Of a stretch of 32,000 nt of DNA, positions 6,715-32,000 are shown in pieces. The first letter of the stretch is position 1, and every line of letters begins with the position of its first letter. Below the pieces are notes generated by a model, which saw nothing but the letters and a program-made list of their open reading frames with translations, was not told the DNA's origin and ran no database searches. Source of the stretch: Geobacter metallireducens GS-15 (GTDB lineage Bacteria; Desulfobacterota; Desulfuromonadia; Geobacterales; Geobacteraceae); assembly GCF_000012925.1 (NCBI RefSeq), contig NC_007517.1, forward strand, positions 1,710,001-1,742,000, given 5' to 3'. Position numbers and translations under genes: made by a program.

Positions 6715-6769
6715 CTCTGTCTCCTCGAAAGGTACCTGTCATGGATATTTGTCTCAGCAATCGCCGCGG

Positions 6770-7177: not shown

Positions 7178-7196
7178 AGCGTTTCTTCCTCCTGAT

Positions 7197-10435: not shown

Positions 10436-10454
10436 TGCGTACCGCCTCCTTGGT

Positions 10455-12519: not shown

Positions 12520-12539
12520 CAATTACCCCTTCAATTATA

Positions 12540-12551
12540 TGAGCGCGCTCA
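12540..12551. promoter_or_regulatory. Perfect 12-bp palindrome TGAGCGCGCTCA next to a TATAAT hexamer; candidate TetR operator/promoter
   Basis: The palindrome lies 21-32 nt upstream of the TetR ATG. On the minus strand it is immediately followed by TATAAT (plus-strand 12534-12539). No convincing -35 element was seen. Confidence 0.35.
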
Positions 12552-13211
12552 CTATAACGGCTAACCAAAAGGATGGCAACACAAAAAATGAACATGCTCA
12601 CAAAACGCGAGACACAGACGATTCAACGGGGTGAATCGGATGGAGGGTCAAGCATTGGAGATGGATACAAGTGATCGAAAGAAGGAAAGATTATCAACCC
12701 AGCAAGTCCCTTGCGTCGCGCCATGATTGTGCCTCACCCATATCTGCAGAGGTATCAACCTGGTCGGCAAGTGAAACGTCCAGGGCCTTAATGACCACGG
12801 CACGTATGGCCTGATATGGTAAATGGAAGGCCGTAGTCGGGCACCATATGGGTTAATGATAATGTCACAGATTTTCATTATTTTATAAATGTTCGAGGCT
12901 GTAGCGGCCAAATTTAGAAAATGATGAAATATTGCTTGTTATCTCAATGTTGCTCGTATTCTCCCTATTCGTATTTCTTAGTTTCATGTGCTTGATTCAA
13001 AAAACATCGACATTGTCAGATGTTACCCCCCTCTACCTTCATCGATGTGCATTCGGATCCTGACGGTCTGTTCTTTTGTACCTTCTAAAGAAAAACATTA
13101 TTCTAAAAATTAACATCGCTATAACATGTCGAAATACAAACAAATTACCTATTCATTTGGGTTGTATTGTTCTGCTGTCAATAAAAAAATATAAATTCAA
13201 CAAATATTGTT

Positions 13212-13227
13212 TGGCATGTAGCGTGCT
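13212..13227 (+). promoter_or_regulatory. sigma54 (RpoN) -24/-12 promoter element upstream of the bbs-like operon
   Basis: TGGCATGTAGCGTGCT compared with the consensus TGGCACG-N4-TTGCW. The GG (13213-14) and GC (13225-26) are exactly 12 nt apart. An A/T tract precedes it, and it lies about 165 nt upstream of the first ATG (13392). Confidence 0.55.
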
Positions 13228-13391
13228 AATGAATAGGCCACAGGCATTGTAAAACAATGTCACAATACTGATATTCATAGGTGAGAACTTAGTGAAAACT
13301 ACCTTCTCTTACATTCTAGTTTAGGTTTTTGTGAGAGAAACGGTAAGTAACTGGCATTACATTAACCATGCAGCTGACTGGAGATAATCAA

Positions 13392-17153: not shown

Positions 17154-17924
17154 ATGGGAGTTGATTTCGTAACAGAGGGGAATGTCGCCTACATCACACT
17201 GAACCGTCCCGACGCCATGAACGCGCTGGACCCCGAGGGGCTCGTGCGGCTGGCGGAGATATGGGGCGAGGTGAAAAATAACCCCGAGATTCGGATCGCG
17301 GTGCTGACCGGGGCAGGGGAGAAGGCCTTTTGCACCGGCACGGACATGAAGAAGGCGAAGGTTCCTGATGAATGCATGGCAGCACTCTACTACAAGGAGG
17401 GGCAGCCGATCATCCCGCACATGAAAATGTGGAAGCCGATCATTGCCTGCATCAACGGGTACGCCGTGGGGGGCGGACTGGAGATGGCCCTGGCGTGCGA
17501 CCTGAGGATCTGCAGCACCACGGCCAAATTCGCCCTCACAGAGACGAAGGTGGCAAGCCTTGCCGGCCTGAACGGGACCCAGTGCCTGCCCAGAGCCATA
17601 CCTCAGGCGGTTGCCATGAAGATGCTCCTGACCGGCGAGATGATCGACGCCGCCGAGGCGCACCGGGTCGGGCTGGTGAGTGATGTTGCCGAACCGGACC
17701 AACTGATGGCCCTGGCCCGGAAATACGCGGAAAAGATCGCCTCCAACGCTCCCTTGAGCGTCATGGCGGCCAAGCAGGCTGCAGTGATGGGGATGGACAT
17801 GCCGCTCCCCCATGCCATCGACTTTTCGTACCTGCTGTGGGGAATACTGCGGGACACGGAAGACCGGAAAGAGGGATTCACCGCCTTTGCCGAGAAGAGA
17901 GCGCCCCAGTATCGGGGGAGATAG
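17154..17924 (+). CDS. bbsH: Enoyl-CoA hydratase/crotonase (phenylitaconyl-CoA hydratase BbsH-like)
   Basis: Track ORF 16998..17924. The ATG at 17154 lies 5 nt after AGGAGG. 'ITLNRPDAMNALD', 'GYAVGGGLEMALACD' and 'ETKV' are crotonase oxyanion-hole/Glu motifs. Confidence 0.8.
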   Translation: MGVDFVTEGNVAYITLNRPDAMNALDPEGLVRLAEIWGEVKNNPEIRIAVLTGAGEKAFCTGTDMKKAKVPDECMAALYYKEGQPIIPHMKMWKPIIACINGYAVGGGLEMALACDLRICSTTAKFALTETKVASLAGLNGTQCLPRAIPQAVAMKMLLTGEMIDAAEAHRVGLVSDVAEPDQLMALARKYAEKIASNAPLSVMAAKQAAVMGMDMPLPHAIDFSYLLWGILRDTEDRKEGFTAFAEKRAPQYRGR

Positions 17925-17934
17925 GAGCCGGATC

Positions 17935-18690
17935 ATGCAGATAGTCGTCTTGGCAAAGGTGGTGCCGGATTACGAAGTGCCGTCCGCGGACTTCGAACTG
18001 GTGGGGAACAGAGCCCATCCCCGGTACACGAGGATGATCGGCCTGTACGATGAAAACGCCGTCGAACTCGGCGTGCAGCTGAAGGAAAAACTCGGGGCCG
18101 ACCTGACGGTTGTCTCCTATGGCCGGAACGACGATGTCCAATTTCTCAGAAAAGCGCTCGCCATGGGTGCAGACAAGGTGGTTCTGGTCGAAGGGGATTC
18201 GGACGATCCGTATGTGATTGCCGCCAACCTGAAAGATGCCATCGATCGGCAGGGTACTGTGGACCTGATCCTTGCGGGTCGTCAGTCCTCGGACATGGAC
18301 CGTGGCGTCGTCCCGGGGGTATTGGCCGGCATGCTCGACCTCCCCTTTGTCCCCCAGGCCTGCAGCGTTGAAAGCGTCGACGGGGGGTGGAAAATTTCGC
18401 AGATAACCGAAACAGGGAAGCGGTTGCTGAAGCTCTCCGGCAAGGGGGTACTCTCCATCACCAGCGTCCCGGAGAACGTTCCCCGGATTCCGGCGGTCAA
18501 AGCGATCTTCGCGGCCAAGAAGAAGCCGGTGGAGAAGCTCCCTGAAATAGGGACCGGAAAGATGGCCGTCTCCGAGCTGTCGGTGAGCATCCCCAAGGTC
18601 GAGTCCAACTGTGAACTTATACCGGCCGAGGATATGGACGATGCTGTTCGTGTTCTCTTGAGAAGGCTCAAGGAGGAACGGTACCTATGA
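17935..18690 (+). CDS. etfB: Electron transfer flavoprotein, beta subunit
   Basis: Track ORF 17812..18690. The ATG at 17935 (MQIVVLAKVVPDYE…) has an AGGAG ribosome-binding site. The N-terminus and length (251 aa) are typical of EtfB/FixA. Confidence 0.85.
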   Translation: MQIVVLAKVVPDYEVPSADFELVGNRAHPRYTRMIGLYDENAVELGVQLKEKLGADLTVVSYGRNDDVQFLRKALAMGADKVVLVEGDSDDPYVIAANLKDAIDRQGTVDLILAGRQSSDMDRGVVPGVLAGMLDLPFVPQACSVESVDGGWKISQITETGKRLLKLSGKGVLSITSVPENVPRIPAVKAIFAAKKKPVEKLPEIGTGKMAVSELSVSIPKVESNCELIPAEDMDDAVRVLLRRLKEERYL

Positions 18691-19574
18691 AAACGCTGAT
18701 CATCGAAACGGCCAATGCCAAGATCCTTGGGGAACTGGTAACCGTAAGCAGGCTGTTCGGCCAGGCCCCGGATGTTGTCGTGCTGGGCAGCGGGGAGTTG
18801 CAGGGGAGCTACGGCAAGGCCTACCGGCTTTCCGATACCCTTGGGGCGAACCTCGGCTCCTCCCTCTCCGACCTGATCAAGAGGGAAAGGTACGAGCTGA
18901 TTCTTCTCAGCACGACTGCCATCGGCAGCGGCTTGGCCGGCCCCCTGGCGGTGAGCCTCGGCGCGCCGATTCTGTCCGAGGTTACCGCCATAAGTCCTGA
19001 CCTGACAATCGAGCGGTCCCTCTACGGCTCCAAGGCTGTTGCCCGTTACAAGCTGGAGTCCGGGCCGCTGGTTCTGACAATCAAGCGTAAATACTTCGAA
19101 GCGGCCACGTTGGAAGGAACGACGGCAACCGAAGAATTACCGGTCGGACCGCAGAAAATAACACTTCTGGAAGAGATCGAGGAGGAGCGCACCGGTATTC
19201 CGCTGGAGGACGCCGAGGTCGTGGTGACCGGCGGGCGGGGGATCGGCAGCGGCGACAACTTCTCCATCCTGAAGGAGATAGCCGGAATGCTGAACGGCGC
19301 GGTAGGGGCGTCCCGGGGGGCGGTGGACGAGGGGTGGATGCCGCCCGGCGCCCAGATCGGCCAGACCGGCAAAATCGTCGCGCCCACCGTCTATTTCGCG
19401 GTCGGGGTGTCCGGCGCCAGCCAGCATCTGGCGGGGATTTCCAACGCCAAATGCGTCATAGCCATCAACAAGGACAACGAGGCGAACATCTTCAAACGGG
19501 CCAGGTTCGGCATCGTCGGTGACTACAAAAAGGCGGTCCCGGCCCTGATCAACGCCCTCAAGGAGAACGCCTGA
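18687..19574 (+). CDS. etfA: Electron transfer flavoprotein, alpha subunit
   Basis: ATGA overlap with etfB. The C-terminal FAD-binding signature is 'GVSGASQHLAGISNAKCVIAINKDNEANIF…ARFGIVGD'. Confidence 0.85.
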   Translation: MKTLIIETANAKILGELVTVSRLFGQAPDVVVLGSGELQGSYGKAYRLSDTLGANLGSSLSDLIKRERYELILLSTTAIGSGLAGPLAVSLGAPILSEVTAISPDLTIERSLYGSKAVARYKLESGPLVLTIKRKYFEAATLEGTTATEELPVGPQKITLLEEIEEERTGIPLEDAEVVVTGGRGIGSGDNFSILKEIAGMLNGAVGASRGAVDEGWMPPGAQIGQTGKIVAPTVYFAVGVSGASQHLAGISNAKCVIAINKDNEANIFKRARFGIVGDYKKAVPALINALKENA

Positions 19575-19575
19575 C

Positions 19576-21540
19576 ATGGAACGGATCCCCTACTGGAATA
19601 TCAGCTATGGCCTCCTGATCGACCTCCTCTCCATCCCGGCAATGGCCGTGTTCGGGTACGGGATCTACCGCCACTGGAAACGGATACGCCAGGGGAAGGC
19701 GAGCGTCAGGCAGGGGATTACCCTTGATGCGCTGAAGCTGGGACCGGTTTATGTCTGGTCGTTTCTGACCAGGGGGATCGTGGGTACCCGTATCTACAAG
19801 AAACCGTTCACCGGCATTGCCCACGGCCTCCTGTTCTGGGGGATGGTCGTTTTGACCGTCGGGACCGTGCTGGTCTTTGCAAATGTGCTGTTCGGCATCC
19901 CGGTCTTCACGGGGGAGTTCAATCGCCGGTTCATGGGGGGAGCCCTCGATGCCGCCGGGGTGGCAGCCCTGGCCGGGGTGCTGTTCCTGCTGATACGCAG
20001 GCTTTCCCCACCCGAAAGGCTGACCTGCTTCAAGGCTAACTCGGGCTTCATCCTGATTGAGATCGGGATCATCGCCATCATCATTACCGGCTTCTTTATC
20101 GAGGGGGCACGAATCGCCCAGAACGGCATTGATCCCGGCTCGTTCGTCGGCAACTGGCTCGGGTTCATGCTGCCAACCGGGGAAGGCGGACTCGAACTTC
20201 ATCGGTACCTCTGGTGGCTCCACGGTCTGCTCGTCCTCTCCCTGATCGCCTATATCCCGTTCTCCCCCCTGGCACACCTGGTGCTGGCTCCGGCCAACGC
20301 CGGTCTCGATACCCCGATCCCCGGCCCTAAGATGGGGGTCATCGATTTCGAGGCGTTCGAGGGGGAAGGGGAGGAGGCCCCGTCCCTGGGGGTGAGCAAG
20401 CTGGCCGACTTCAGCCGGAAGAACCTGCTGGACATCTCCACCTGCCTGAAGTGCGGCCGGTGCCACGAGGTCTGCCCCGCGGCCCAGACCGGCAAACATC
20501 TCTCTCCCAAAGGGGTAATGGTCACCCTTGCCGAGTATCTGCAAGAGGGGAAGATGCACGACGACTCGCTCCTGGAAACCATATCCACCGACGCAATTTA
20601 CAGCTGCACCACGTGCGCCGCCTGCATGGAAGCCTGCCCGGTATCGGTGAACCAGCCGAACGCCATCCTCGGCATGCGGCAGCATCTCCTCATGGAGCGG
20701 TCGGAAATGCCCGACATCATGGGGCAGGCGCACCGCAGCCTGGAGGCCCGTCAACATCCCTTCATCGGTACCGGTTTCGGCCCCAACGACTGGCGCAAGG
20801 GGCTGGAGGTTCCCATCTACGAAAGGGGCGCCACCGAATATCTCCTCTGGATCGGCTGTTCGGTTGCCTATGAGGAGCGGACCCAGCATATCGGCCGGGC
20901 TATGGTCGCCATCCTGAAGAAGGCCGGGGTTTCATTCGGCATCCTGGAGGAAAACCGCTGCACCGGCGATCCGGCAAAGCAGATGGGTAACGAATTCCTG
21001 TTTTCGGAGATTGCCGGCCGGAACATCGAGGAGTTTAACGAGCTAGGGGTGACCAAGGTCATCACCATGTGTCCCCACTGCTTTAATAGCTTCACCCGGC
21101 ATTATCCCCTGCTGGGGGCGAAGTTCGAGGTAATCCCCCATGCGGTGCTCATCCGCAGTCTGATAGAGGCAGGGAAGATAACGCTCGCCAACAGCGGCAG
21201 GAGCATCTGCTATCACGATCCCTGCTACCTGGGGCGGCACAACAACGTGCTGTCGGAGCCGCGCAGCGTCGTTTCCTCAATCGGCCACCTGGTGGAGATG
21301 CCGAGGCATGGGAGCGAAAGCTTTTGCTGCGGCGCCGGCGGCGGCAATTACTGGACCGAGGAAGAGGGGACCCGGATCAACCAGACCAGGGCCAAAGAGG
21401 CGCTGGACACGGGCGCAAAAACCATCGCCACGTCCTGTCCGTTCTGCATGCTGATGCTGACGGACGGCCTGAAGAAATTCACGGAAGAACAGATGGTACA
21501 GGATATCGCGGAACTGGTGTGCAGTCAGATGGAAGGGTGA
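19576..21540 (+). CDS. Membrane-anchored Fe-S oxidoreductase (NarI/HdrE-like TM domain plus 2x[4Fe-4S] plus two CCG domains); probable ETF:menaquinone oxidoreductase
   Basis: 654 aa. About five N-terminal TM helices carry conserved His residues ('IAHGLLFWG', 'LWWLHG'). Cys motifs seen: CLKCGRCHEVCP and CTTCAACMEACP, then HdrD/GlpC-type CCG motifs ('MCPHCF', 'FCCGAGGG', 'SCPFCM'). It starts 1 nt after the etfA stop codon. Confidence 0.75.
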   Translation: MERIPYWNISYGLLIDLLSIPAMAVFGYGIYRHWKRIRQGKASVRQGITLDALKLGPVYVWSFLTRGIVGTRIYKKPFTGIAHGLLFWGMVVLTVGTVLVFANVLFGIPVFTGEFNRRFMGGALDAAGVAALAGVLFLLIRRLSPPERLTCFKANSGFILIEIGIIAIIITGFFIEGARIAQNGIDPGSFVGNWLGFMLPTGEGGLELHRYLWWLHGLLVLSLIAYIPFSPLAHLVLAPANAGLDTPIPGPKMGVIDFEAFEGEGEEAPSLGVSKLADFSRKNLLDISTCLKCGRCHEVCPAAQTGKHLSPKGVMVTLAEYLQEGKMHDDSLLETISTDAIYSCTTCAACMEACPVSVNQPNAILGMRQHLLMERSEMPDIMGQAHRSLEARQHPFIGTGFGPNDWRKGLEVPIYERGATEYLLWIGCSVAYEERTQHIGRAMVAILKKAGVSFGILEENRCTGDPAKQMGNEFLFSEIAGRNIEEFNELGVTKVITMCPHCFNSFTRHYPLLGAKFEVIPHAVLIRSLIEAGKITLANSGRSICYHDPCYLGRHNNVLSEPRSVVSSIGHLVEMPRHGSESFCCGAGGGNYWTEEEGTRINQTRAKEALDTGAKTIATSCPFCMLMLTDGLKKFTEEQMVQDIAELVCSQMEG

Positions 21541-21591
21541 GAACGGTCATTTTTCATAAAGAGCGCTGAAAACAACTACAGGAGGAGTGTC

Positions 21592-22032
21592 ATGGCAAAG
21601 GAAGAGGTTAAGCAGAAGAAGACGAAAGAGAAGGAACCCGATATTACCTTCTTTCACCCGGATATACTGGAAGTGCCCAAGGACGGCGGCCTTCCCTATC
21701 TGAAGGGGTATCGTTGCAAGAAGTGCGGGCAACTGGATTTCAAGACTGAGATGTGCACCAACTGTTGGAGTGAGGAGTTCGAAATGGTGCCTCTCTCCCG
21801 CAGAGGGAAGGTCTACAGTTTTTCGGATATCTATATCGGCCAGCAGGGGCTGGCAACCCCATACATCTTCGCCTATGTGGATCTGCCGGAGAATCTGCGG
21901 GTATTCGCCCAACTGGAGGGTGAAGTTGACACCTATCGCTGCGACGAAGAGGTGGAACTGACTCTGGGGCCGATCAGGATGAACAACGATAACCTGCCGA
22001 TCATCAGCTACAAGTTCAAGAAGATTGCCTAA
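21592..22032 (+). CDS. bbsA: DUF35 Zn-ribbon/OB-fold protein (benzoylsuccinyl-CoA thiolase small subunit BbsA-like)
   Basis: 146 aa. CKKCG-x10-CTNC forms a four-Cys zinc ribbon, followed by an OB-fold-like segment. It lies directly upstream of the thiolase-like gene, as in BbsAB. Confidence 0.7.
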   Translation: MAKEEVKQKKTKEKEPDITFFHPDILEVPKDGGLPYLKGYRCKKCGQLDFKTEMCTNCWSEEFEMVPLSRRGKVYSFSDIYIGQQGLATPYIFAYVDLPENLRVFAQLEGEVDTYRCDEEVELTLGPIRMNNDNLPIISYKFKKIA

Positions 22033-22057
22033 CTATTGAAAGAAACGGGAGAAGGTT

Positions 22058-23230
22058 ATGAAATTACAGCGTGAAGTATACATAGCAGGGGTGGGGGAAA
22101 CGAAATTCGGCAAGCATACGGTCGATTTCGATGTGTTGGGGAGGGAGGCTGCTCTGCAGGCGATGAATGGATCGAACATCGACCGACCGGACATGATCCA
22201 GAGCGCCTATGTGGGAAACGGAATGAACGACATGACGACCGGCCAGGCTGTTTTCAGGGGGCTGGGGATGTGCGGGCCCAATCTGCCGATTATCAATGTG
22301 CAGAGCGCCTGTTCAGCCGGCGCCATGGCAGTCTTCTGCGCCATTAAGGATGTGGCCACCGGAGTTACCGACCTCTCCATCGGAGTCGGCACTGAGAACC
22401 ACACCATGCACAGACAGAGCGGAGCCGCGTTCAGTGCGGCCAGGTCAGACATAGAAACCATGCACGGGGCGGTCATGACCGGCAAATACGCCATGCGGGC
22501 GACCCGCTATATGCATGAGACCGGCGCCACCATCGAGGATCTGGCGATGATCACGGTGAAAAACCGCAAGCACGCCACCCACAACCCCTATGCCTGGTTC
22601 AAGGGGGCGATCACGGTGGAAGAAGTGGTCAATTCCCGGATGGTTGCCTATCCCATGACCCTGCAGCAGTGTTGCGGCATTGCCGACGGCGCTGCCGCCG
22701 TGGTGGTCGGTTCCAAGGAGATGATGAAGAAACTGGGGATTGCCAAGCCGGTCAAGGTGGCGGGTGTGGTGGTGGAGTCGGGTCCGTACCATAACCGGCC
22801 GCGGGACATTACCGGCGACGATATCACCGAGACCACTTCGGAAAAGTTGTACGAGGAGTCGGGGATCGGCCCGAAAGAGGTCAATATTCTCGAATTGCAC
22901 GACGCCTTCACCATTGCCGAGCTTCTCTATTACGAATGCATGGGGCTTTGCAAAAAGGGAGATGGCCTCAAGTTCCTGAGGGACGGCCAGTCCACCTATG
23001 GCGGCCAGTGCGTGGTGAGTCCACGGGGTGGGCTGCTCTCCTACGGCCACCCGATCGGCGCTTCCGGTGCGGCCCAGATCGCCCAGAACGTGAAGCAGCT
23101 GCGGGGGGAATGCGGCGGTTACCAGGTCGGTCCGACTCCGAAGGTTGCCATGTCCCACGTCACCGGCGGCGGGCTCTCCGGCACCGAGCATGCGGCGTGC
23201 ACCATGCACATGCTGGTAAAGGGGTGGTAA
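22058..23230 (+). CDS. bbsB: Thiolase-fold protein (benzoylsuccinyl-CoA thiolase BbsB-like)
   Basis: 390 aa. The active-site Cys context is '[11 protein letters not shown]', with '[11 protein letters not shown]' near the C-terminus. It looks like the SCP-x/DUF35-partner thiolase type. Confidence 0.8.
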
Positions 23231-23277
23231 GCGAGGCATCTGACCAATAAATCCTCAACGGGTAAGGAGAGGCAGTC

Positions 23278-24024
23278 ATGAAAGACAGAACAGCACTGAT
23301 AGTGGGAGCGGCAAACGATATAGGAGGGGCGATCAGCGTCCGATTCGCGAAACTCGGCGCGCGAGTCGTCCTGATCGATACGGATCGGCAGGAATTGGAC
23401 AAGGTGTCTGCCCTGGTGGCAGCGGCAGGGGGTGAAGCGGAGGTTATTGCCGTAGACGGTGCAGATTCCGGCGCAGTCAAGAGCACAATAGACGGTATTG
23501 CCGGGAAACACGGCTCGATAGACATCCTGGTCAATGCCATCGACCACAGGGACGGCGTACCGATCACCGAAGGGACCGTCGAGACCTGGGAGCGCTCCCT
23601 GAAAGAAAATATCACTCCGCTGGTCTCCTTCTCCCTGAACGTGATCCCGGTGATGAAGAACAACAAGTATGGCCGGATCGTGAACATCGGCAGCCTCGAT
23701 TATCTGGGGACAGCGAAGCAGGCCAACTACAGCACCGCAAAATCAGCCATCTTCGGGTTGACACGCTCGTTTGCCCTGGAGCTGGCAAAGGACGGTATTA
23801 CCGTAAACCAGATCCTGAAGGGGGACGTCAAGACGGCAGAATGTCCCCTCTCCCCTGAAGAGGAGGAGAAAGGGGCTGCCAAGTTGCCGGTGCAGCGTCT
23901 GGGCAAGCCGGAGGATATTGCCTATGCCGCTGCGTATTTTGCCTCCGGCCTGAGCGGCTATGTCACGGGGCAGAACCTTATCGTCTGCGGTGGCAAGAGC
24001 ATCTATTCGTCAATGTCCGCGTAG
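23278..24024 (+). CDS. bbsC: Short-chain dehydrogenase/reductase-fold subunit with a degenerate nucleotide-binding motif (BbsC-like)
   Basis: 248 aa. The Gly-rich motif reads VGAANDIGG (Asp where TGxxxGxG has its second Gly). NNAG is replaced by VNAID. YSTAK is retained. Confidence 0.7.
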   Translation: MKDRTALIVGAANDIGGAISVRFAKLGARVVLIDTDRQELDKVSALVAAAGGEAEVIAVDGADSGAVKSTIDGIAGKHGSIDILVNAIDHRDGVPITEGTVETWERSLKENITPLVSFSLNVIPVMKNNKYGRIVNIGSLDYLGTAKQANYSTAKSAIFGLTRSFALELAKDGITVNQILKGDVKTAECPLSPEEEEKGAAKLPVQRLGKPEDIAYAAAYFASGLSGYVTGQNLIVCGGKSIYSSMSA

Positions 24025-24052
24025 GGGCGGACGTCACATCGGGAGGAAGATC

Positions 24053-24802
24053 ATGGCAGGTTTACAGGGGAAGGTGGCATTGATAACCGGATCGGCAAGC
24101 GGTATGGGGAAGAAGACAGCGCAGCGGCTTGCGGAAAAGGGGGTGAAGATCGTCATCAACGACATTGTTTCGGAAAAAGTCGATCAGACGGTTAAGGAAT
24201 TTTCGGCACAAGGGTTTGAGGTAATGGGTGTGGTGGCCGACATCTGCAAAACCTCCGCCGTTCAGGAGATGGTGAAAAGCGCGGTCGAGAGGTTCGGCTC
24301 CCTGGATATCCTCGTCAACAATGCGGGGATGGAACGGGCCGGCGCCCTGAGAAATCTCAGTGAGACGGACTGGGATCTGACGGTGGACGTCAACCTGAAG
24401 GGGGCTTTCCTCTGCAGCCAGGCGGCGCATGGCCACATGATCGAACAAGGAGGAGGGCGGATCGTCAATATCGCCTCCAGGGCGTGGCTCGGAGGGGCGG
24501 GACAGGCACCCTACTCATCGGCCAAGGCCGGCCTGGTGGGGCTTACCAGGACCCTGGCACTGGAGCTGGGGCGCAAGGGGGTAACGGTCAACTGCATCGC
24601 TCCGGGCCTCATCCACACCCCCATGTGGGACGAGCTTCCGGAAAAGAACCGGCTCGGCTTTCTTGCCAAGCAACCGATGGGGAAGATCGGTGAGGACGAA
24701 GATATCGCCAATGCTGTCCTCTTTTTCCTGGATGACGAAGCGTCGTTCATTACCGGTCAGGTCTTCTATGTCTGTGGCGGGAGAAGTCTGTTTGCAGGGT
24801 GA
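24053..24802 (+). CDS. bbsD: Canonical SDR (2-[hydroxy(phenyl)methyl]-succinyl-CoA dehydrogenase BbsD-like)
   Basis: Track ORF 23960..24802. The ATG at 24053 follows GGGAGGAAG. TGSASGMG, NNAG, the Ser of 'NIASRA' and YSSAK are all intact. Confidence 0.75.
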   Translation: MAGLQGKVALITGSASGMGKKTAQRLAEKGVKIVINDIVSEKVDQTVKEFSAQGFEVMGVVADICKTSAVQEMVKSAVERFGSLDILVNNAGMERAGALRNLSETDWDLTVDVNLKGAFLCSQAAHGHMIEQGGGRIVNIASRAWLGGAGQAPYSSAKAGLVGLTRTLALELGRKGVTVNCIAPGLIHTPMWDELPEKNRLGFLAKQPMGKIGEDEDIANAVLFFLDDEASFITGQVFYVCGGRSLFAG

Positions 24803-24855
24803 TCGGCAACACCGCAGCCACCGTAACGTCAGGGGTGTGAAAGGAATGGTGAGAC

Positions 24856-24999
24856 ATGAAGAATGAGAATAGTGACAGGTTGGAATACACGAGCGATGAT
24901 GAACTTTTCCCTACGGAAATCACCTTTTCCGGCGGCCTGAAAATTCGTCTGGGATGCTCGGAGGACGGTAAGTCCTACCTGAAGGTAGAGTCTCCCTGA
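24856..24999 (+). CDS. Hypothetical 47-aa protein (below the ORF-track size cut-off)
   Basis: Hand translation gives MKNENSDRLEYTSDDELFPTEITFSGGLKIRLGCSEDGKSYLKVESP*. It fills most of an otherwise unexplained 264-nt gap at the operon end. The ribosome-binding site is weak or distant (AAGGAA 10 nt upstream). Confidence 0.3.
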   Translation: MKNENSDRLEYTSDDELFPTEITFSGGLKIRLGCSEDGKSYLKVESP

Positions 25000-25066
25000 G
25001 AGGTGCCTCGTATCCGGAGCGGCAGGAAGGGGAGACAGTGTACACGGTTTCAAAGGAGGAACAGCC

Positions 25067-25492
25067 ATGATTTCACCGGAACGCTTGCGGGTTTATCGCT
25101 TCTTCGCCTCACTGACGGACGAACAGCTCAAGGATATTGCCTTGATCAGCGAGGAGAAATCCTTTCCCACGGGTAGCGTTATTTTCAAGGAAAACAGTAA
25201 GGCCGACAACCTGATGCTCCTGCTGGAAGGGGGCGTGGAGCTGTTCTACAGCAATGGCGGGGCAGGATCCGCTGCAAACTCCACGGTTTGTTCCGTCGTC
25301 CCCGGGGCGATCTTCGGCGTTTCATCGTTGATAAAACCATACCACTACACTTCTTCCGCCCGGGCGACCAAGCCGGTCAGGGTCGTGGACATCAACGGGG
25401 CGAGGTTGCGGGAGATGTCGGAAAACAATCAGGCCCTGGGGCAGGTGCTGATGAACAATGTGGCCGCAGCGGTGCTCGCCCGCCTGCACTAA
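25067..25492 (+). CDS. Stand-alone cyclic-nucleotide-binding (CNB/CAP-effector) domain protein with no output domain
   Basis: 141 aa. 'FKENSKADNLMLLLEGGVELFY…GAIFGVSSLI…SARATKPVRVV' follows the beta-roll/phosphate-binding-cassette pattern. The FGE Glu is replaced by Val; the Arg is retained. Strong AAGGAGGAA ribosome-binding site. Confidence 0.7.
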   Translation: MISPERLRVYRFFASLTDEQLKDIALISEEKSFPTGSVIFKENSKADNLMLLLEGGVELFYSNGGAGSAANSTVCSVVPGAIFGVSSLIKPYHYTSSARATKPVRVVDINGARLREMSENNQALGQVLMNNVAAAVLARLH

Positions 25493-25522
25493 TGAAGGCT
25501 TTCAACAATCACTAAGGACTAA

Positions 25523-25579
25523 GGCAGTGAAATGCCGCAGATTGCTGACAAATCCAGAATCTGCGGCATTTCACCTGCC
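25523..25579. terminator. Long hairpin between convergent operons (17-bp perfect stem, extendable to 21 bp with one bulge, 14-nt loop)
   Basis: GTGAAATGCCGCAGATT (25527-25543) is the exact reverse complement of AATCTGCGGCATTTCAC (25558-25574). The right arm overlaps the stop codon of the 25571..27028 gene. There is no clear U-tract on either strand. Confidence 0.5.
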
Positions 25580-27028
25580 TGCCGCCGCACTCACACCGGC
25601 AATTCTCCCAAAGGCCAGACATTCGGCAATATTGCCCCCACCCTGATAAACCAATCCCCAGAGGGAACCGAGTTCTCCGGCTCCGTACAATCCCGGTATC
25701 GGATCGCCGAAGGGATCGACGATCTGTGCCCGTTCATTGCGCCGTGGTCCGCCTTGGGTGTTAGCCAGCGAGGGATAAATTTCCATGGCATAAAACGGCC
25801 CGGTATGGATCATGGCCAGATCACTATTTTCCTTAATCTCGCGCCCGAAGAGCGTGTCCTTTCCCGCCCGTACGGATGCATTCCACTGTTTAATGGTATC
25901 ACGCAGGGTCAAACCGGAGATTCCCAGTTGCCGGGCCAGGTCGGCTATGGTCTCAGCCTGCACGATCCAGCCGTTGTCGATCTCTGTACGATTGTCTTTG
26001 CTCCAGGAGTAGCGGCTGCCGGCAGAGCCGAGACCGATCAAGCCGGAAACCGGTTCCCGCTTGCGCTTATTTTCATCAAAAATCAGGTAAAAAGGGATAC
26101 GAGGATAGGAAAGGGCATGGCTGTCGAAGTAATCTACCGCCAATAAACCGGCCTGACGTTCCACGGCGCTTTCGTTAACAAAGCGTTTGCCGTTCCTGTC
26201 GACAAATATCTGGCCGGTGGTGCCGATGGACATCAACAGCGCTGAGTCAAACTCAGGCGCCTTGAATCCGAAGGCGCAGGAGACGCCGTTCATGTGCCAT
26301 AAAGCTGCGCCGACTTTTTGTGCCATGCGAAGCCCGTCCCCCCGGTTGCCGGGATGTCCCAGTGAGTAAAGGGGACTTCCTTTGACGCTGTTTTTGAGCA
26401 TTATCGGGTCGAATTCGTATCCGCCGCTCGTAAGGATGACGCCACGTCTTGCCTGAATCGCAATTTCATCCCCTTTAGACTGGGCAATAACTCCGGTTAC
26501 TTCACCGTTACCACCGGTAACAAGGCGCTTCGCCGGAGTTCGGGTCAGAACCGGGATATTCCTGTGGCGTTCTACGGCCTGGGAGAGCAGCTGCCATAGA
26601 TTCCGGGCAAAGGCCGTTGTTCCCCGGTTAGCGCCTTTTACGACATATCTAATGATCGCCTCGGCGCCGGCAAGTTGAGGATAGCCGGCGCCGCCATAGG
26701 TTTGAAAAGCAACTTCATTGTCTAATGTTTTAAGCCAGTCGGGAGTTTTTGCCGATTCTTCGACAAAAACCCGCAACAATCGATCATCTCTATCCGAATG
26801 GGAAGAATCAAAAAGCGCTCTGACATACGCAAGCGCTTTGATTGGGTCGTTATGGCTGATGAACCCGCCGAAAGAGACCAGGGTATTCCCTCCCCCTTGG
26901 GGGGTGCTTTCGAGAACCAGTGTGGCGGCCCCGGCATCGTGGGCGGCAATGGCCGCCGTCGCTCCGGCGCCGCCATAGCCGATGACGACCACATCAACGG
27001 TTCTGTCCCAACTGGTTGCCGGATTCAT
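25571..27028 (-). CDS. FAD-dependent oxidoreductase (FAD_binding_2: fumarate reductase/succinate dehydrogenase flavoprotein / KstD-like)
   Basis: 485 aa. The N-terminal dinucleotide fold is 'VDVVVIGYGGAGATAAIAAHDAGA'. The C-terminal 'IPGLYGAGELG…GGGNIAECLAFGRIAG' is typical of this family. Confidence 0.8.
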   Translation of the reverse strand: MNPATSWDRTVDVVVIGYGGAGATAAIAAHDAGAATLVLESTPQGGGNTLVSFGGFISHNDPIKALAYVRALFDSSHSDRDDRLLRVFVEESAKTPDWLKTLDNEVAFQTYGGAGYPQLAGAEAIIRYVVKGANRGTTAFARNLWQLLSQAVERHRNIPVLTRTPAKRLVTGGNGEVTGVIAQSKGDEIAIQARRGVILTSGGYEFDPIMLKNSVKGSPLYSLGHPGNRGDGLRMAQKVGAALWHMNGVSCAFGFKAPEFDSALLMSIGTTGQIFVDRNGKRFVNESAVERQAGLLAVDYFDSHALSYPRIPFYLIFDENKRKREPVSGLIGLGSAGSRYSWSKDNRTEIDNGWIVQAETIADLARQLGISGLTLRDTIKQWNASVRAGKDTLFGREIKENSDLAMIHTGPFYAMEIYPSLANTQGGPRRNERAQIVDPFGDPIPGLYGAGELGSLWGLVYQGGGNIAECLAFGRIAGVSAAAGR

Positions 27029-27122
27029 ACCGCTCCCGCTTGACCTCTAATCGGTAAAATGATTCGGAACAGTGTTTGCTCCATTTCCAAGTTTTGCTCC
27101 AGCCTGCCATGGCTGATCCGCT

Positions 27123-27929
27123 TTAGAACAGGCTCAGCAGCATCTTGGTTCCCATCACGATCACCAGCAAGCTAAAAACAAGCCTTAATTTATAAATTGG
27201 CAGGTTGTGTGCCAGTTTTGCGCCAAGCGGCGCAGTCACGATACTTGCGACGACAATACCGAACAGCGCAGGGAGGTAGACAAAACCGAAAGAGTGTGGG
27301 GGAAGCGGCACCTGTAGACCATTAATCACGTAGCCGACAGCTCCGGCCAGCGCGATTGGAAAACCGATTGCCGCCGATGTGCCGATAGCCCGGTGAAAGG
27401 CAACGTTACACCAGACAAGAAACGGGACCGACATGCTGCCGCCGCCGATGCCGACCAAACTGGAAACGCAGCCGATCAGCCCGCCGACGCCAAACAGAGC
27501 TGTACGGCCGGGAAGCTGGCGGTGGGGTTTGGGCTTAATATCGAGCAGCATTCGCGTGGCGATGTAATAGAGGAACAAGACGAAAAACCCTTTGAGAAAG
27601 CGGGTTGAGAGCTGGGCGGCGACCCATGAACCTGTATATGTACCGGCTATGATGCCGAAGCTGATACGTCGCACCACAGCCCAATCCACGGCTCCATGCC
27701 GGTGATGGGCACGCAGGGAGGAAATGGAGGTGAACATGATGCAGGCCAGGGATGTGCCGAGGGCCAGATGGAGGATATGTTCTTCCGGCAGATGCTGGGC
27801 GGTGAACATAAACGTGAGTATCGGCACGATGATCAAACCGCCCCCGACACCAAACAGACCGGCAGAAAGCCCGGCAAATGTCCCGATAGTGATATAGGTT
27901 AACCACATTGGCATCAGCCTTCCCATCAT
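27123..27929 (-). CDS. TauE/SafE (TSUP, DUF81) family anion permease
   Basis: Very hydrophobic, about 8 TM helices. The 'G(L/I)xGxGGG' motif is duplicated ('GLFGVGGGLIIVP' and 'LVGIGGGSMSVP'). The start is ambiguous (TTG 27932, ATG 27929/27926/27914/27908). Confidence 0.8.
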   Translation of the reverse strand: MMGRLMPMWLTYITIGTFAGLSAGLFGVGGGLIIVPILTFMFTAQHLPEEHILHLALGTSLACIMFTSISSLRAHHRHGAVDWAVVRRISFGIIAGTYTGSWVAAQLSTRFLKGFFVLFLYYIATRMLLDIKPKPHRQLPGRTALFGVGGLIGCVSSLVGIGGGSMSVPFLVWCNVAFHRAIGTSAAIGFPIALAGAVGYVINGLQVPLPPHSFGFVYLPALFGIVVASIVTAPLGAKLAHNLPIYKLRLVFSLLVIVMGTKMLLSLF

Positions 27930-27983
27930 CAACGCAAAAACAATCCGCTGCCGGATCCATTATCGCCAACTGGCCGATTCAGG

Positions 27984-29345
27984 TTAAAACCTGTGGGTAT
28001 AGGCAATACTGAAGTTGTTCTGCGAATGCACAAGCCGTGTGTTCGCATTGTCGAACGATTCCTCAAACGCATGGGAATAGGCAAAATCCACCGTGTTCGC
28101 CGCCGAAAAATCATACGAGAATCCTGCCGATGCATGCTTGGTGGGAATGGCGGGTATGACCGCAATCACCGTGTCGGAGCGCATGGCCTGGCTGGCAATC
28201 CGCCCACCGCAGCGCAACGTCCAGTGCCCTGTTCGGTATGCGACACCAAGGGAATAAATCATCTGATCCTTGTAGTTCTGAGGTAAGGAGATATGGATAT
28301 CCTCACCGTTATCGGTCACGAAATGGACCTTCAGGTCTTTCACGGCATTCTTCCAGAAAACCCGCGAGATATCCGCAACCACCAACCAATGTTCGTTGAT
28401 CTGGTGACTGACGCCAATATCCAGCTGGGCCGGCATCTGCAGGCCACCCAACTTTATCTTCCCCTTGAGCGGAATCTGTCCCGCACTCCCGTCGACTGCA
28501 GTCATGGTGGCATTGCCTTCCATGTCCGCCATCCGGCTTTCCATGGTGTACGCGGCGCCAATAATAGTGTCCTTGGACAGTTTGTAGACCCCCCCGATCC
28601 GGGCGCCGAAACCCCACGCATCTATGCCGCTTGCGATGGGTTGATTTTTCGTCATGCTGAAATGAGCGCCGCGTAAGTCGGGGAGTCCTCCCAGTACAGG
28701 GAGCAAGCTGCCGGTAACGCGCCCCCCCTGGATCAGAGCGCCAACATCTTCTGCCGGCAGCAGGAGTTCCAGGTTCAGACCTTCCCACATTGCATCGATG
28801 GCGGCTCCTATGGTCAACTTTTCGTTGATATCGTAGGTTATTGCGAAGGGGACATTCAAAACCAGCAGACGGCTGGAATTATCAAGCCCTGTGTCCAGGT
28901 TGCCGGAGGCACGGGAAAGAAAGGTATTCCTTCCATACTCCGTTCCCAGTCCACCTTGGGCGAACGCACCAAATCCAAGGGTCAGGGGGGCGGCCCGATA
29001 GACAAATCCCGCTTCGGGTGCGGCATAGGGGCCACGGTTATTGGAGTGGGAGTCAGACGAGGCATTTTCCCCTGTTGCCTTATTTTTAGCGGAAATATCG
29101 GTCACAACAACGTCCAGGCCCACGTGGATTTCAGAACCGGCGCCCATCAGCGACAGTGTTGCCGGATTAGTCATCATTCCCGCTGCGCCGACATCAAATG
29201 CCGTTGCGGCCCCCCCCATGCCGCGCGATACGGGGCCAAACCCCTCGAGCCGGAACACATCTGTTGCATAAGACACTCGCAACGTAGTCGACACTATGAT
29301 TGCGACCATTGCCAAGGTGTACGGTGTTACAATTTTATATTTCAT
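27984..29345 (-). CDS. Outer-membrane hydrophobic-compound channel, FadL/TodX/TbuX (OmpP1) family
   Basis: 453 aa. Signal peptide, then 'GFGPVSRGMGGAATAF' (the FadL-family N-terminal hatch signature). The sequence has beta-strand periodicity and a terminal Phe (…AYTHRF). Confidence 0.8.
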   Translation of the reverse strand: MKYKIVTPYTLAMVAIIVSTTLRVSYATDVFRLEGFGPVSRGMGGAATAFDVGAAGMMTNPATLSLMGAGSEIHVGLDVVVTDISAKNKATGENASSDSHSNNRGPYAAPEAGFVYRAAPLTLGFGAFAQGGLGTEYGRNTFLSRASGNLDTGLDNSSRLLVLNVPFAITYDINEKLTIGAAIDAMWEGLNLELLLPAEDVGALIQGGRVTGSLLPVLGGLPDLRGAHFSMTKNQPIASGIDAWGFGARIGGVYKLSKDTIIGAAYTMESRMADMEGNATMTAVDGSAGQIPLKGKIKLGGLQMPAQLDIGVSHQINEHWLVVADISRVFWKNAVKDLKVHFVTDNGEDIHISLPQNYKDQMIYSLGVAYRTGHWTLRCGGRIASQAMRSDTVIAVIPAIPTKHASAGFSYDFSAANTVDFAYSHAFEESFDNANTRLVHSQNNFSIAYTHRF

Positions 29346-29415
29346 TGATTCACCTTTACCGAAAGATATTTTGTTTGCCCTGCCTTGATCGCCAACGGGT
29401 ATGGCTCATTTCTCT

Positions 29416-31125
29416 TTACTTGGGTGAAAGAAGTTTTTTAAACACATTTGGAAACTGCTCCATAGTGTTAACAAACTGGATCATTTCGCCATATTCTTCC
29501 GACAGAGCAGTTTTGTTCATGGGGTCGCATTCAAGCCCCAGGGTCAGCAGGTTTATCTTCTTCTTCTTGCAGTAGGCGATGGCGTCGCGCACCCCGCACC
29601 CCCAGTTGGATGCCCCATCGGTAATATGGATGATAAATGGTTTGCGTGCGCCTGGCTTGAGGCTTATTGCCGTGGCGATGATGGCCTCGCCAGAAGCGGT
29701 TCTGCCATGGGGAGTAACGGAAAAGAATTGGCCCTGCTTGAAAATTTCCGTGATCCGGCAGGTCTCATTCCGTTCGTTGTAGGCAAAGATCCGGGCATTG
29801 GCGTTGTAATCATGGATGGCCGTAAAGAGCGTCTGATAGATGAGTTCTGCCTTTGACCATTTGGTGGGTTCCGACATGGAACCGGTGCAGTCCACAAGGA
29901 GAACTATATCGTTGTGCAATTCGTACTTCGTTTTCTTCAGGTTGAAAATAGAGCCGGTTGTGGGCGCCCGGTATAGGCGCGTGCGATCGATCCTCCCCGA
30001 ATCCAGGCCTCTGCTGAAGGAGATGTTTCGCTGGGCAGCCAACTGGAGCACTGTTTTCAGCTTGTAGAGGAGGGCGTTATCGACATTCTTCTTCGCCGGC
30101 ATGACGATGTCATTCCCTTCCACGCGAACCACATCGCCAAAATTGGCCACGAGCAGTCGTACCTGCTCGGTGAAATCCACATGCTTCGTCTCAATAGTGC
30201 TTTCGATCTCGTCCGCAAAACTCAGGAGGGTAGCCTTGACCGCGTCCATTTCCTGGTCTTCCTGAGCCACGTCTTCCGTGAAATCCGCGGAAAGCAGAAA
30301 GGGGTCCTTCCTGTCGGCCGGCCAGAATTTCACCATTTCCAGCAACTCATTGAAAATGGAGGCATAACGGTTCAACCGGTATTCACAGCGTTCAGTCACG
30401 CTCGGCAGAGCGGCGCAGTGTGTGATCAAATCTTCCACAATGGAGTTAAGAAGCGCCATGGGTTTGGTATAGGGCTGGCTTGTGGAGGCTCTTCCAGCCA
30501 TTTCCACGACGGAATGATCCTCGTAAGGTTGTTTGTAGGTTTCTTGTTCCGCATCGGCGGCGATCCGCCACCAGATGTGCAGCAGCTCGCTGAATGAGGG
30601 GGGGCTGATGAACTGTTTTGCCGCTTTCGCAATCTCCCATTCCCGGGCCTTTGCCGCATACAGGCCGAGGATGCTCCTGTTGGCAACGAGATCCGCATAA
30701 ACCTTTTCCGCAATATCCAGAAAGAGGGAAAATTTGTATGCATACATCGGAGGGAGTTCGAGTTTTGTCTGGGCCAGCTTCAGGACATGGCCGGTCCATT
30801 CCGTCTTCAGGTAGGCGCTTCTGATGGCGAGCCCTATTGCAATGTCGGCCTGAACTGCGGGGATCGGATAGCGTCCCATGATCGGTGAGGGATCAATTTC
30901 GATGCTGTCGGATCGGGTAATCGGCATTCCTTCCCAGACTACGCTGCCGCTGTTTCTGCCGACTTGAGAAACCACCTTTCTGATGCCACGCAGCAATTTC
31001 GCCAGTTCCAGTATCTCAACGGGCGATTTGTCCCTGCGCCAGTATTCGGAAAAACCGTTTTCACCGGCTATCAGGAAACGTTCCTGAGCTTTACCGTCCC
31101 GAGAGGTTTTTTCGGAATGAATCAT
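29416..31125 (-). CDS. VWA (MIDAS) domain protein with a large uncharacterised N-terminal region; partner of the upstream AAA+ ATPase (BssF-like by position)
   Basis: 569 aa. The C-terminal ~190 aa carry the MIDAS elements 'LLVDCTGSMS' (D-x-T-x-S), 'HGRTASGEAI' (Thr) and 'IHITDGASN' (Asp). The N-terminal ~380 aa show no motif I recognise. The start overlaps the ATPase stop codon (ATGA). Confidence 0.7.
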   Translation of the reverse strand: MIHSEKTSRDGKAQERFLIAGENGFSEYWRRDKSPVEILELAKLLRGIRKVVSQVGRNSGSVVWEGMPITRSDSIEIDPSPIMGRYPIPAVQADIAIGLAIRSAYLKTEWTGHVLKLAQTKLELPPMYAYKFSLFLDIAEKVYADLVANRSILGLYAAKAREWEIAKAAKQFISPPSFSELLHIWWRIAADAEQETYKQPYEDHSVVEMAGRASTSQPYTKPMALLNSIVEDLITHCAALPSVTERCEYRLNRYASIFNELLEMVKFWPADRKDPFLLSADFTEDVAQEDQEMDAVKATLLSFADEIESTIETKHVDFTEQVRLLVANFGDVVRVEGNDIVMPAKKNVDNALLYKLKTVLQLAAQRNISFSRGLDSGRIDRTRLYRAPTTGSIFNLKKTKYELHNDIVLLVDCTGSMSEPTKWSKAELIYQTLFTAIHDYNANARIFAYNERNETCRITEIFKQGQFFSVTPHGRTASGEAIIATAISLKPGARKPFIIHITDGASNWGCGVRDAIAYCKKKKINLLTLGLECDPMNKTALSEEYGEMIQFVNTMEQFPNVFKKLLSPK

Positions 31126-32000
31126 CGATATTCTCTGGTGTGCTGTTGCCAGGTGTGGTCGAACAGAACGTATTCATTGCCGACGCTCTCGGTGTACCCC
31201 TTGTTGACATGGAGACCGATGAGCACCGACTCAAGCGCCTCCTGGCTGGTCTGGAGACTCACGGCCAGGGCCTGTCGCAAGCTTGCGCCGACTGCCATCA
31301 TATCGCCGATCATGAGGGCCGTTCTGGTCGATACGTCGATCCTGAGATCGGAATGGCTTCTCAGGAAGTTAAGGGCGGAGATGATGTCGTCTGCCTGCAC
31401 AGCGGAGATGCCGGTTTTTTTTACCAACACCTCTCTTTCCACGTCGTTTGGCAGATAATCCATCAGCAAAAAGTAAAAGCGATCACGCAGGGCGGCATCG
31501 AGCAGTTCAGTCCCGACAAAGTCGTCCCCCTCATTCAAGGTGGCAAAGAACACCACCCCTTTCGCCACGTTTACCTGTCCCAGCTCTTCGAGCCAGACCT
31601 CGCGGCTGTCGGACAAGAGGGAGAAAAGCATATTCAAGGCCTTCGGGTGTTCCGGCCGGTTGATCTCTTCCAGGTGAATGACACAGTTGGGGGTCTGGAT
31701 AGCCTCGGGGAACAGAAACTGTTTATATTTCGTCTCTCCGGCTTCCAGTGCGTATTCACCAAACAGCTGGCCAGGCTCGGAAAGTATGCCGACTTGAAAC
31801 GTCGATAACGGGTTCTGGTAGATGGCGGCATACTGCCTTACCAGGGAAGACTTTCCACATCCCTGCCTACCGGAGATCAGCACGTTCACCGGTTTTTTTT
31901 GCGATAGCTGGTGGATCTTTTCAAAAATATCCGCCACGTCCTTGCTTACATAAAAATAGGGATCTTCCTGGGGTACCGATAAGTTACTCTGTTTACTGGC
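31122..32000 (-). CDS. MoxR/CbbQ/NorQ-class AAA+ ATPase (BssE-like by context); probably truncated at the right window edge
   Basis: Walker A 'SGRQGCGKSSL' and Walker B 'CVIHLEEINR'. The track starts it at GTG 31937, but that codon has no properly spaced ribosome-binding site. The frame stays open for all 21 codons up to position 32000 (ASKQSNLSVPQEDPYFYVSKD-), so the true start is likely beyond the window. Confidence 0.75.
   Translation of the reverse strand, partial: ASKQSNLSVPQEDPYFYVSKDVADIFEKIHQLSQKKPVNVLISGRQGCGKSSLVRQYAAIYQNPLSTFQVGILSEPGQLFGEYALEAGETKYKQFLFPEAIQTPNCVIHLEEINRPEHPKALNMLFSLLSDSREVWLEELGQVNVAKGVVFFATLNEGDDFVGTELLDAALRDRFYFLLMDYLPNDVEREVLVKKTGISAVQADDIISALNFLRSHSDLRIDVSTRTALMIGDMMAVGASLRQALAVSLQTSQEALESVLIGLHVNKGYTESVGNEYVLFDHTWQQHTREYR

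Follow-up and report, generated by a model that had tools for sequence, protein, structure and literature searches.

The window analysed here is a stretch of 32,000 nucleotides from Geobacter metallireducens GS-15 (contig NC_007517.1, positions 1,710,001 to 1,742,000), and its right end holds two minus-strand genes, bssE and bssF, which belong to the operon of benzylsuccinate synthase, a fumarate-adding glycyl-radical enzyme. bssE, a tutH homologue, encodes an AAA+ ATPase of the MoxR/CbbQ-NorQ type; it extends from position 31122 to beyond 32000 and is open to the right window edge. bssF (29416-31125) is an open reading frame for a 569-aa adaptor protein with a von Willebrand factor A (VWA) domain and a metal-ion-dependent adhesion site, or MIDAS. 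The TGA stop codon of bssE and the ATG of bssF share four bases (ATGA, 31122-31125, within ...CGATGATTC...), an overlap already reported in the original prediction, an earlier reading of this DNA made from its letters alone.

A public contig of 176 kb, assembled from run SRR10239438 and referred to here as L001, was used to extend the window. It is 100% identical to window positions 19416-32000 over 12,585 bases and runs on beyond the window edge, and the exact 569-aa protein is present on many public contigs. The full-length bssE, at 9120-10004 of L001, encodes 294 aa, of which the window lacks the first two codons only. The genes on this strand of L001 follow the order bssD, bssC, bssA, bssB, bssE, bssF, with bssE beginning 141 nt after bssB. 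The original prediction had placed genes of the bssDCAB type past the right edge, on the minus strand, and that is where they lie. Since bssD-bssC-bssA-bssB stand directly upstream on the identical contig, the ATPase and the 569-aa protein are bssE and bssF, as had been proposed; the gene order is joined in this by full-length orthology to named BssF proteins. Among the upstream products, the activase BssD (348 aa) has its best NCBIfam match in TIGR04003 rSAM_BssD at 412.6 bits, below the equivalog cut-off of 496, and its PFLE_PFLC score is above cut-off. The small subunits match Pfam BssC_TutF (57 aa) and BssB_TutG (75 aa), and the glycyl-radical enzyme BssA (862 aa; Pfam PFL-like and Gly_radical) shares 96% identity with its counterparts in Geotalea and Citrifermentans and 70-74% with those in Aromatoleum.

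The plus strand of the window holds the genes for the beta-oxidation of benzylsuccinate, among which bbsA and bbsB score above their NCBIfam equivalog cut-offs (BbsA 274.7 against 250, BbsB 821.5 against 750) and are accompanied by genes for a CoA-transferase, an acyl-CoA dehydrogenase, a hydratase, a short-chain dehydrogenase/reductase and an electron-transfer flavoprotein (ETF). The locus is thus the canonical bssDCABEF plus bbs toluene island of a Geobacteraceae bacterium. The known bssDCABEF operons of Thauera, Aromatoleum/Azoarcus, Geobacter and Desulfobacula have the same order, the same protein sizes (294 and 569 aa) and bssDCAB upstream, with identities of 49-90% for BssF and 65-95% for BssE, and the present locus departs from them in no essential point.

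The ATPase matches both families that had been named for a profile search, Pfam AAA_5 (E=7e-19) and CbbQ_C (E=5e-5), and its nearest solved sequences are the AAA modules of midasin (2.5e-21), NorQ (5e-13) and CbbQ (5e-10). Of the two Walker motifs described earlier as intact, the Walker A stands: GRQGCGKS was checked by translation at 31848-31871, and the pattern GxQGCGKS is invariant in 129 BssE homologues. The Walker B, likewise checked by translation at 31665-31682, is not canonical. It reads VIHLEE, with Glu-Glu in place of the canonical Asp-Glu, and HLEEINR is invariant in 130 homologues. Judged from these sequences, the Glu-Glu Walker B is a signature of the BssE family, and ATP hydrolysis is a prediction only. 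Sensor 1 (ATxN), the RF arginine finger and sensor 2 (SxR) are invariant or nearly so in the 130 homologues. BssE is a MoxR ATPase of the clade 7 type and is paired genetically with a protein that carries a C-terminal VWA domain and a complete MIDAS, as in the MoxR AAA+/VWA remodellers NorQD, CbbQO, CobST and RavA-ViaA.

BssF ends in a VWA domain (residues 397-566, 29428-29937). Its Pfam VWA match is weak (residues 406-534, E=4.7e-4, 20.9 bits against a cut-off of 23.8 bits). The fold is nevertheless secure, because homologues of BssF exceed the cut-off and because a Foldseek comparison of its AlphaFold model with solved structures returned VWA/MIDAS domains only, all with probability 1.0. The top match was NorD's VWA domain within the NorQD complex (9qhg_G, E=2.3e-5, target-normalised template-modelling (TM) score 0.57), followed by the MIDAS domains of Rea1/Mdn1. 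The MIDAS is complete, as had been read from the letters; translation places D412-C-T414-G-S416 at 29878-29892, T476 at 29698-29700 and D503 at 29617-29619. D412, S416, T476 and D503 are invariant across the BssF family, down to 24% identity, and position 414 is Thr here and Ser in most members. Four cysteines of the VWA domain (C456, C510, C519 and C533) are invariant among close homologues. A four-cysteine metal or iron-sulphur (Fe-S) site was considered as a family feature and rejected, as only C456 and C519 are near-invariant family-wide and C510 and C533 vary.

The AlphaFold2 model of BssF (predicted local distance difference test (pLDDT) 75, predicted TM-score 0.49) shows a helical N-domain (residues ~35-311, 30193-31023), a low-confidence stretch, a few strands, a low-confidence segment (372-394) and the compact VWA domain. 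The N-domain helices mostly have pLDDT values of 75-93, and on this side of the protein S26, W29, P87, D94, E140, Y156, R250 and Y254 are invariant down to 24% identity. The original prediction had described the N-terminal ~380 residues as carrying no motif that it could place; they indeed match no Pfam or NCBIfam family, while residues ~300-405 are a remote match to a known linker and shaft, described below. When residues 1-395 were modelled separately and compared with solved structures, the best match had E=0.2, and sequence profiles gave no match for the N-domain. This family-specific region is presumed to be the client- and ring-docking domain. In the work on NorQD, the N-domains of VWA proteins associated with MoxR ATPases are described as client-specific and not conserved, a view with which the matchless N-domain of BssF agrees.

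The most conserved element of BssF outside the MIDAS is a basic segment, RGLxSGKIDRRRLYRAPTTGxxF (residues 372-394). Within the conserved stretch that we regard as the candidate shaft or finger from conservation and a CobT alignment (RGLDSGRIDRTRLYRAPTTGSIFNLK, residues 372-397, 29935-30012), G377, D380, R383 and L384 are invariant across the family down to 24% identity. The segment has low pLDDT in spite of its strong conservation. The net charge is +5 over residues 372-405 and -11 over the preceding acidic linker (280-333). A wide-family BssF profile finds CobT (9uka_G) with E=9.8e-7, the sole significant match to a solved protein beyond generic VWA domains. The alignment pairs profile positions 261-440 with CobT 281-459, about 180 residues that run from the linker through the shaft into the beginning of the VWA domain, and in it G377, D380, R383 and L384 of BssF coincide with the identical CobT residues G384, D387, R390 and L391. 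The basic segment falls on CobT 380-413, inside the CobT shaft Q373-R413, to which residues 373-406 of BssF show sequence homology. By sequence, residues ~300-405 of BssF are thus distant homologues of the linker and shaft of CobT.

A 2026 preprint on CobSTN reports that CobT Q373-R413 is disordered in the apo complex and, with nucleotide, inserts into the CobS ring as a central shaft. In the same structures, CobT_N binds a small AAA+ subdomain, a linker of ~90 residues remains disordered, and the face of the VWA domain near the MIDAS touches the client CobN. The NorQD structures, also from 2026, show the same principle, with a finger that is indispensable for maturation of the client. BssF is built in three parts like NorD and CobT, with a helical N-domain, an acidic linker and a basic conserved segment before the VWA domain, and on the evidence of the alignment it probably carries the same element, which would insert into the pore of BssE. 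The helix-2-insert region of BssE is largely invariant among the 130 homologues (E77, G79, L81, G83, T92 and Y94), as is expected if the insert grips the equally invariant shaft of BssF.

These likenesses have limits. NorQ/NorD, which inserts FeB into nitric oxide reductase (PDB 9qhg), combines a MoxR AAA+ ring with an adaptor made of an N-domain, a disordered linker, a VWA-MIDAS domain and a finger, and it resembles BssE/BssF in this respect; BssE has NorQ among its best matches by sequence, and NorD is the best structural match to the VWA domain of BssF. The N-domain of NorD, however, is unrelated to that of BssF, and no homology of BssF to NorD or CbbO was detected at the sequence level with either profile. 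The client of NorQD is a membrane haem-copper oxidase, whereas the presumed client of BssE/BssF is a soluble glycyl-radical enzyme for which no metal insertion is known to be needed. CobT of the aerobic cobaltochelatase CobNST (PDB 9uka), the partner of CobS, is the only solved protein with significant similarity to BssF beyond the bare VWA core, but its M48C-like N-domain was not detected in BssF, and this locus has neither a CobN partner nor a cob context. CbbQ/CbbO, a MoxR ATPase with CbbQ_C and a VWA/MIDAS adaptor serving one enzyme, resembles BssE/BssF at the level of class only, and CbbO is larger than BssF, with an unrelated N-terminal region. CbbQO offers a conceptual model, that of a remodeller which re-opens a blocked active site, although no inhibited state of benzylsuccinate synthase is known.

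The BssF family is conserved over its full length. In a protein collection clustered at 90% identity, 284 homologues were found, named by NCBI either 'vWA domain-containing protein' or BssF, and a library of 1.8 billion proteins contains 246 clusters of the family at E<=1e-3. No curated NCBIfam family exists for BssF, and no NCBIfam model matches it. Mean column identity is 60% among 38 sequences, and full-length relatives reach down to 24% identity. The protein of the window shares 54% identity with BssF of Desulfobacula toluolica (P0063) over 99% of its length and is ~48-51% identical to the proteins of Aromatoleum, Herminiimonas and Desulfosarcina loci. With one genome per species, 79 loci encode a BssF relative, the closest being those of Geotalea sp. 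SG265 (90%) and Citrifermentans bremense R1 (89%). The genomes that bear it belong mostly to known or suspected anaerobic hydrocarbon degraders and include Aromatoleum, Geotalea toluenoxydans, Desulfosarcina, Herminiimonas sp. CN, NaphS2, N47 and Desulfosporosinus Tol-M.

Linkage was counted over those 126 BssF-family genes for which 1.2 kb or more of upstream sequence was available. A bssE homologue lies directly upstream on the same strand in 112 of them, usually overlapping or within 30 nt. The identical 4-nt overlap occurs in 17 loci and is typical of Geobacteraceae copies, and three loci (L018, L020 and L022) have the inverted order bssF-bssE. Where the flanks allow, the majority of loci also encode a BssA-like glycyl-radical enzyme (32-96% identity) and its activase, and close relatives of BssF are nearly all found with BssA (44-96% identity), BssC and BssD. 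Distant relatives (24-33%) still follow a BssE homologue (50-60%), and such pairs are often near an activase and a glycyl-radical enzyme ~32-37% identical to BssA, a level of divergence which suggests that these are clusters of the alkylsuccinate-synthase type. Three contigs (L113, L131 and L150) carry two different BssF-family genes each, and in L131 and L150 each is preceded by its own BssE homologue, which implies that every paralogous fumarate-adding enzyme has its own E-F pair. The BssF family is held almost exclusively by fumarate-adding-enzyme loci, in known hydrocarbon degraders.

Downstream of bssF, three minus-strand genes follow whose products, named earlier from the letters alone, agree with their Pfam matches. 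A TodX/FadL-type outer-membrane hydrocarbon channel (27984-29345; Toluene_X, 9e-41) begins 70 nt after bssF. It is followed by a TauE/SafE (TSUP) permease (27123-27932; TauE, 1.8e-57) and, as the last gene of the co-directional run, by a 485-aa FAD_binding_2 flavoprotein that resembles flavocytochrome c, fumarate reductase and ketosteroid dehydrogenase (25571-27028; FAD_binding_2, 7e-47; NCBIfam flavo_cyto_c, 5.8e-59, below its cut-off). Betaproteobacterial bss operons, by contrast, continue after bssF with bssG-L. A terminator scan found no terminator-like site between bssF and todX, and its total for the window was not above that of shuffled sequence; no Rfam family matched in the window. 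The todX/fadL gene also follows bssF in Geotalea sp. SG265 and Citrifermentans bremense. The permease, which is not present in the closest genomes, probably does not belong to the core of the system. Other Geobacteraceae loci (L007, L008, L010, L011 and L080) also keep the flavoprotein after bssF, with 64-74% identity, and a role in the handling of fumarate or succinate is conceivable.

At the other end of the operon, a divergent sigma-54 activator of the XylR/MobR type (V4R and Sigma54_activat; L001 2435-4195, minus strand) precedes bssD. A sigma-54-like -24/-12 element, TGGCACAACTGCTGCT, lies at L001 4711-4726 on the plus strand, ~65 nt upstream of the bssD ATG. In a promoter scan, sigma-54 matches in the window and locus were not commoner than expected by chance; the position of this element fits a sigma-54-driven bss operon.

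Several further features of the island were observed. The bbs operon has, between a bbsH-like gene and bbsA, genes for the ETF beta and alpha subunits and for a 654-aa Fe-S/CCG-domain oxidoreductase with a membrane part resembling the gamma subunit of nitrate reductase (17812-21540, plus strand), which suggests a dedicated route by which benzylsuccinyl-CoA dehydrogenase delivers electrons into the membrane. Between the bbs and bss sets, a 141-aa protein consists of a cyclic-nucleotide-binding domain only, without a DNA-binding domain (25067-25492, plus strand); a called 47-aa reading frame adjoins it, and both are kept in all identical and near-identical contigs. A stretch of ~850 nt (12523-13367) that separates a divergent TetR-family gene from the first bbs-type CoA-transferase gene has no convincing reading frame and no Rfam match, with a G+C content of 0.48-0.50 against 0.56-0.64 around it, and is presumably the regulatory region of the bbs genes. 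Beside the island, a minus-strand cluster (4667-12522) encodes a MacB-type ATP-binding-cassette exporter (an 851-aa FtsX/MacB_PCD permease and its ATPase), a LolA-like protein, an atypical kinase of the ABC1 type and a TetR regulator; it is a possible module for export or solvent stress. At 2792-4547, a minus-strand gene for a protein of the metallo-beta-lactamase fold stands back to back with a plus-strand gene for a LuxR-type regulator with an autoinducer-binding domain; this could be a quorum-sensing or quorum-quenching pair, unrelated to bssE and bssF.

For more than 20 years, bssE and bssF have been recognised as conserved members of the operon. A 2020 study describes their products as belonging to the superfamilies of AAA+ proteins and of von Willebrand factor, with uncertain function, and benzylsuccinate synthase as extremely oxygen-sensitive and regulated post-transcriptionally (PMC7285207). 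That BssF proteins are VWA proteins, which the original prediction could not confirm, is borne out by this source and by the NCBI vWA annotation; both precede the present analysis, and the novelty that had been implied falls away. BssE is reported as indispensable for the degradation of toluene, and in Azoarcus CIB an insertion mutant of bssF does not grow on toluene or m-xylene (PMC5874301, 2018). A 2026 review of glycyl-radical enzymes does not mention bssE or bssF, and no paper developing a MoxR/VWA mechanism for the two proteins was found in the open-access literature, subscription reviews being outside this search. The identity and superfamily assignment of bssE and bssF are therefore already published, and no new kind of system is described here. 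The present contribution is to map BssF onto the template of NorD and CobT, together with the homology of its shaft, and to show the conserved linkage of the E-F pair to fumarate-adding enzymes.

Taken together, BssE and BssF are a conserved accessory pair of bssDCABEF operons, and we consider it probable that a BssE hexamer drives BssF to remodel benzylsuccinate synthase. The formation of the ring, the insertion of the shaft and benzylsuccinate synthase as the client are the parts of this proposal that we infer, and the step assisted by the pair is speculative. BssE, as a MoxR-class (clade 7) AAA+ ATPase, would form a hexameric ring, on which BssF, as its dedicated adaptor, would dock through its N-domain and shaft. 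Following the acidic flexible linker, the shaft (residues ~372-405) would plug the ring's pore. The MIDAS site of the VWA domain would be presented to an acidic residue on the client, and the N-domain would also engage the fumarate-adding enzyme. Hydrolysis of ATP in BssE may then twist or pull the shaft, so that force would pass through BssF to the glycyl-radical enzyme. Most likely, the pair would serve to open the alpha-beta-gamma complex or to re-seat it, with its glycyl-radical domain and beta subunit as the parts concerned, for installation or re-installation of the radical by BssD.

In vitro, the activase alone can install the radical, and the beta subunit inhibits this installation, yet it is needed for catalysis (PMC10239695). 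A factor that transiently opens the alpha-beta-gamma complex is attractive for this reason, since the cell must have some means of handling this conflict. It is possible, and we put it forward tentatively, that the shaft and the MIDAS of BssF pry benzylsuccinate synthase open, with the beta subunit displaced or the glycyl-radical domain pulled out, and that BssD then installs or re-installs the radical.

Several observations weigh against a remodelling role of BssE/BssF on benzylsuccinate synthase. Active recombinant enzyme has been obtained in Aromatoleum evansii with a construct that lists bssA, B, C and D only (PMC13298812); because active enzyme was made without either gene, neither BssE nor BssF is strictly required for assembly or activation. 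The authors of the Azoarcus CIB study concede that the bssF insertion was possibly polar on downstream genes (PMC5874301). The seven-gene mas cluster of HxN1, as described, has no such pair (PMC12358834). Three Desulfosarcina loci (L029, L036 and L037) have bssDCAB-bssF with no bssE in the fetched flanks, which were 10 kb on each side in L036 and L037 and ~6 kb downstream in L029; two other loci also have bssDCAB followed by bssF with no bssE in the fetched sequence, which downstream is shorter in L051 and 284 nt in L024. Next to other fumarate-adding enzymes, these Desulfosarcina genomes have additional E-F pairs that are complete, and an ATPase could therefore be shared in trans. Three metagenome contigs (L091, L101 and L109), with ~10 kb of flank on each side, encode E-F pairs whose BssF is 26-29% identical, and no BssA-like glycyl-radical enzyme or activase lies within 10 kb; the gene for the client is then located elsewhere, or the subfamily has a different client. 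As to the proteins themselves, the unusual Glu-Glu Walker B leaves the catalytic site of BssE putative, and the interaction and activity of BssE and BssF are predicted from sequence and by analogy. The structural model is of moderate quality only, with low confidence in the shaft region, and the similarity of BssF to NorD seen with it is structural only (target-normalised TM-score 0.57).

Two other accounts of the pair have to be weighed, both of which we regard as viable but unlikely. In the first, BssE/BssF would be a chaperone for cofactor insertion or assembly, which opens the apo-enzyme for low-potential [4Fe-4S] clusters to enter BssB and BssC or for the small subunits to be mounted on BssA, and would take no part in the radical step. 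The closest characterised relatives, NorQD and CobST, do serve metal insertion (FeB and cobalt, respectively), the beta and gamma subunits each hold a [4Fe-4S] cluster, the gamma subunit is needed for the solubility of alpha, and TutH and IbsE are routinely co-expressed as a 'chaperone' for enzyme production in E. coli. However, Fe-S-bearing alpha-beta-gamma complexes and active enzyme have been made without BssF and, according to the listed construct, without BssE; general Fe-S machineries are normally enough for such clusters, and the variation of C510 and C533 across the family leaves BssF with no conserved metal-delivery site.

It seems improbable, too, that the pair acts mainly in repair or quality control, in the manner of CbbQO, freeing or dismantling benzylsuccinate synthase that is radical-quenched, oxygen-damaged or trapped by product or inhibitor, and not in its first activation. 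The architecture is that of CbbQ/CbbO, the extreme oxygen sensitivity and post-transcriptional regulation of the enzyme (PMC7285207) are in keeping with such a role, and so is the combination of active enzyme without E and F in short-term heterologous expression with a need for the genes in sustained growth. On the other hand, an inhibited state of benzylsuccinate synthase that requires an activase is not described in the literature examined. This account also overlaps with the remodelling that we favour, in so far as the latter includes re-opening for re-activation, and the two are not separable by sequence alone.

That the two proteins form a chelatase motor of the CobS/CobT type, or a generic MoxR/VWA pair whose position in the operon is incidental, is very improbable: although CobT is the best match of the BssF profile to a solved structure, BssE has a faint match to NCBIfam PD_CobS and a few E-F pairs have no glycyl-radical enzyme within 10 kb, the CobT relation is remote (E=1e-6 over ~180 residues), Pfam CobT_C does not match the 569-aa protein, PD_CobS scores 21.9 bits against a cut-off of 558, no cobN or other cob genes are present in the window or on L001 and the family is small and tied almost exclusively to fumarate-adding-enzyme loci, so that a chelatase identity is excluded by context and family thresholds, the generic pair is largely refuted by synteny and the protein groups with BssF, as had been supposed.

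The anaerobic degradation of toluene, xylenes, methylnaphthalene and alkanes begins with fumarate-adding glycyl-radical enzymes. If BssE and BssF do open benzylsuccinate synthase for its activase, this would resolve the in-vitro paradox of a beta subunit that blocks activation yet is needed for catalysis, and the pair would be the first known case of an AAA+ remodeller that acts on a radical enzyme. The same would then apply to the fumarate-adding enzymes that have an E-F pair, whether bss-type, nms-like or alkylsuccinate-synthase-like. The 2026 structures of NorQD and CobST provide a concrete mechanical template, and the mapping of BssF onto it gives precise mutants and an in-vitro assay. Fumarate-adding enzymes are wanted as biocatalysts and are hard to produce in active form, and work on BssE and BssF might raise the yields of active enzyme.

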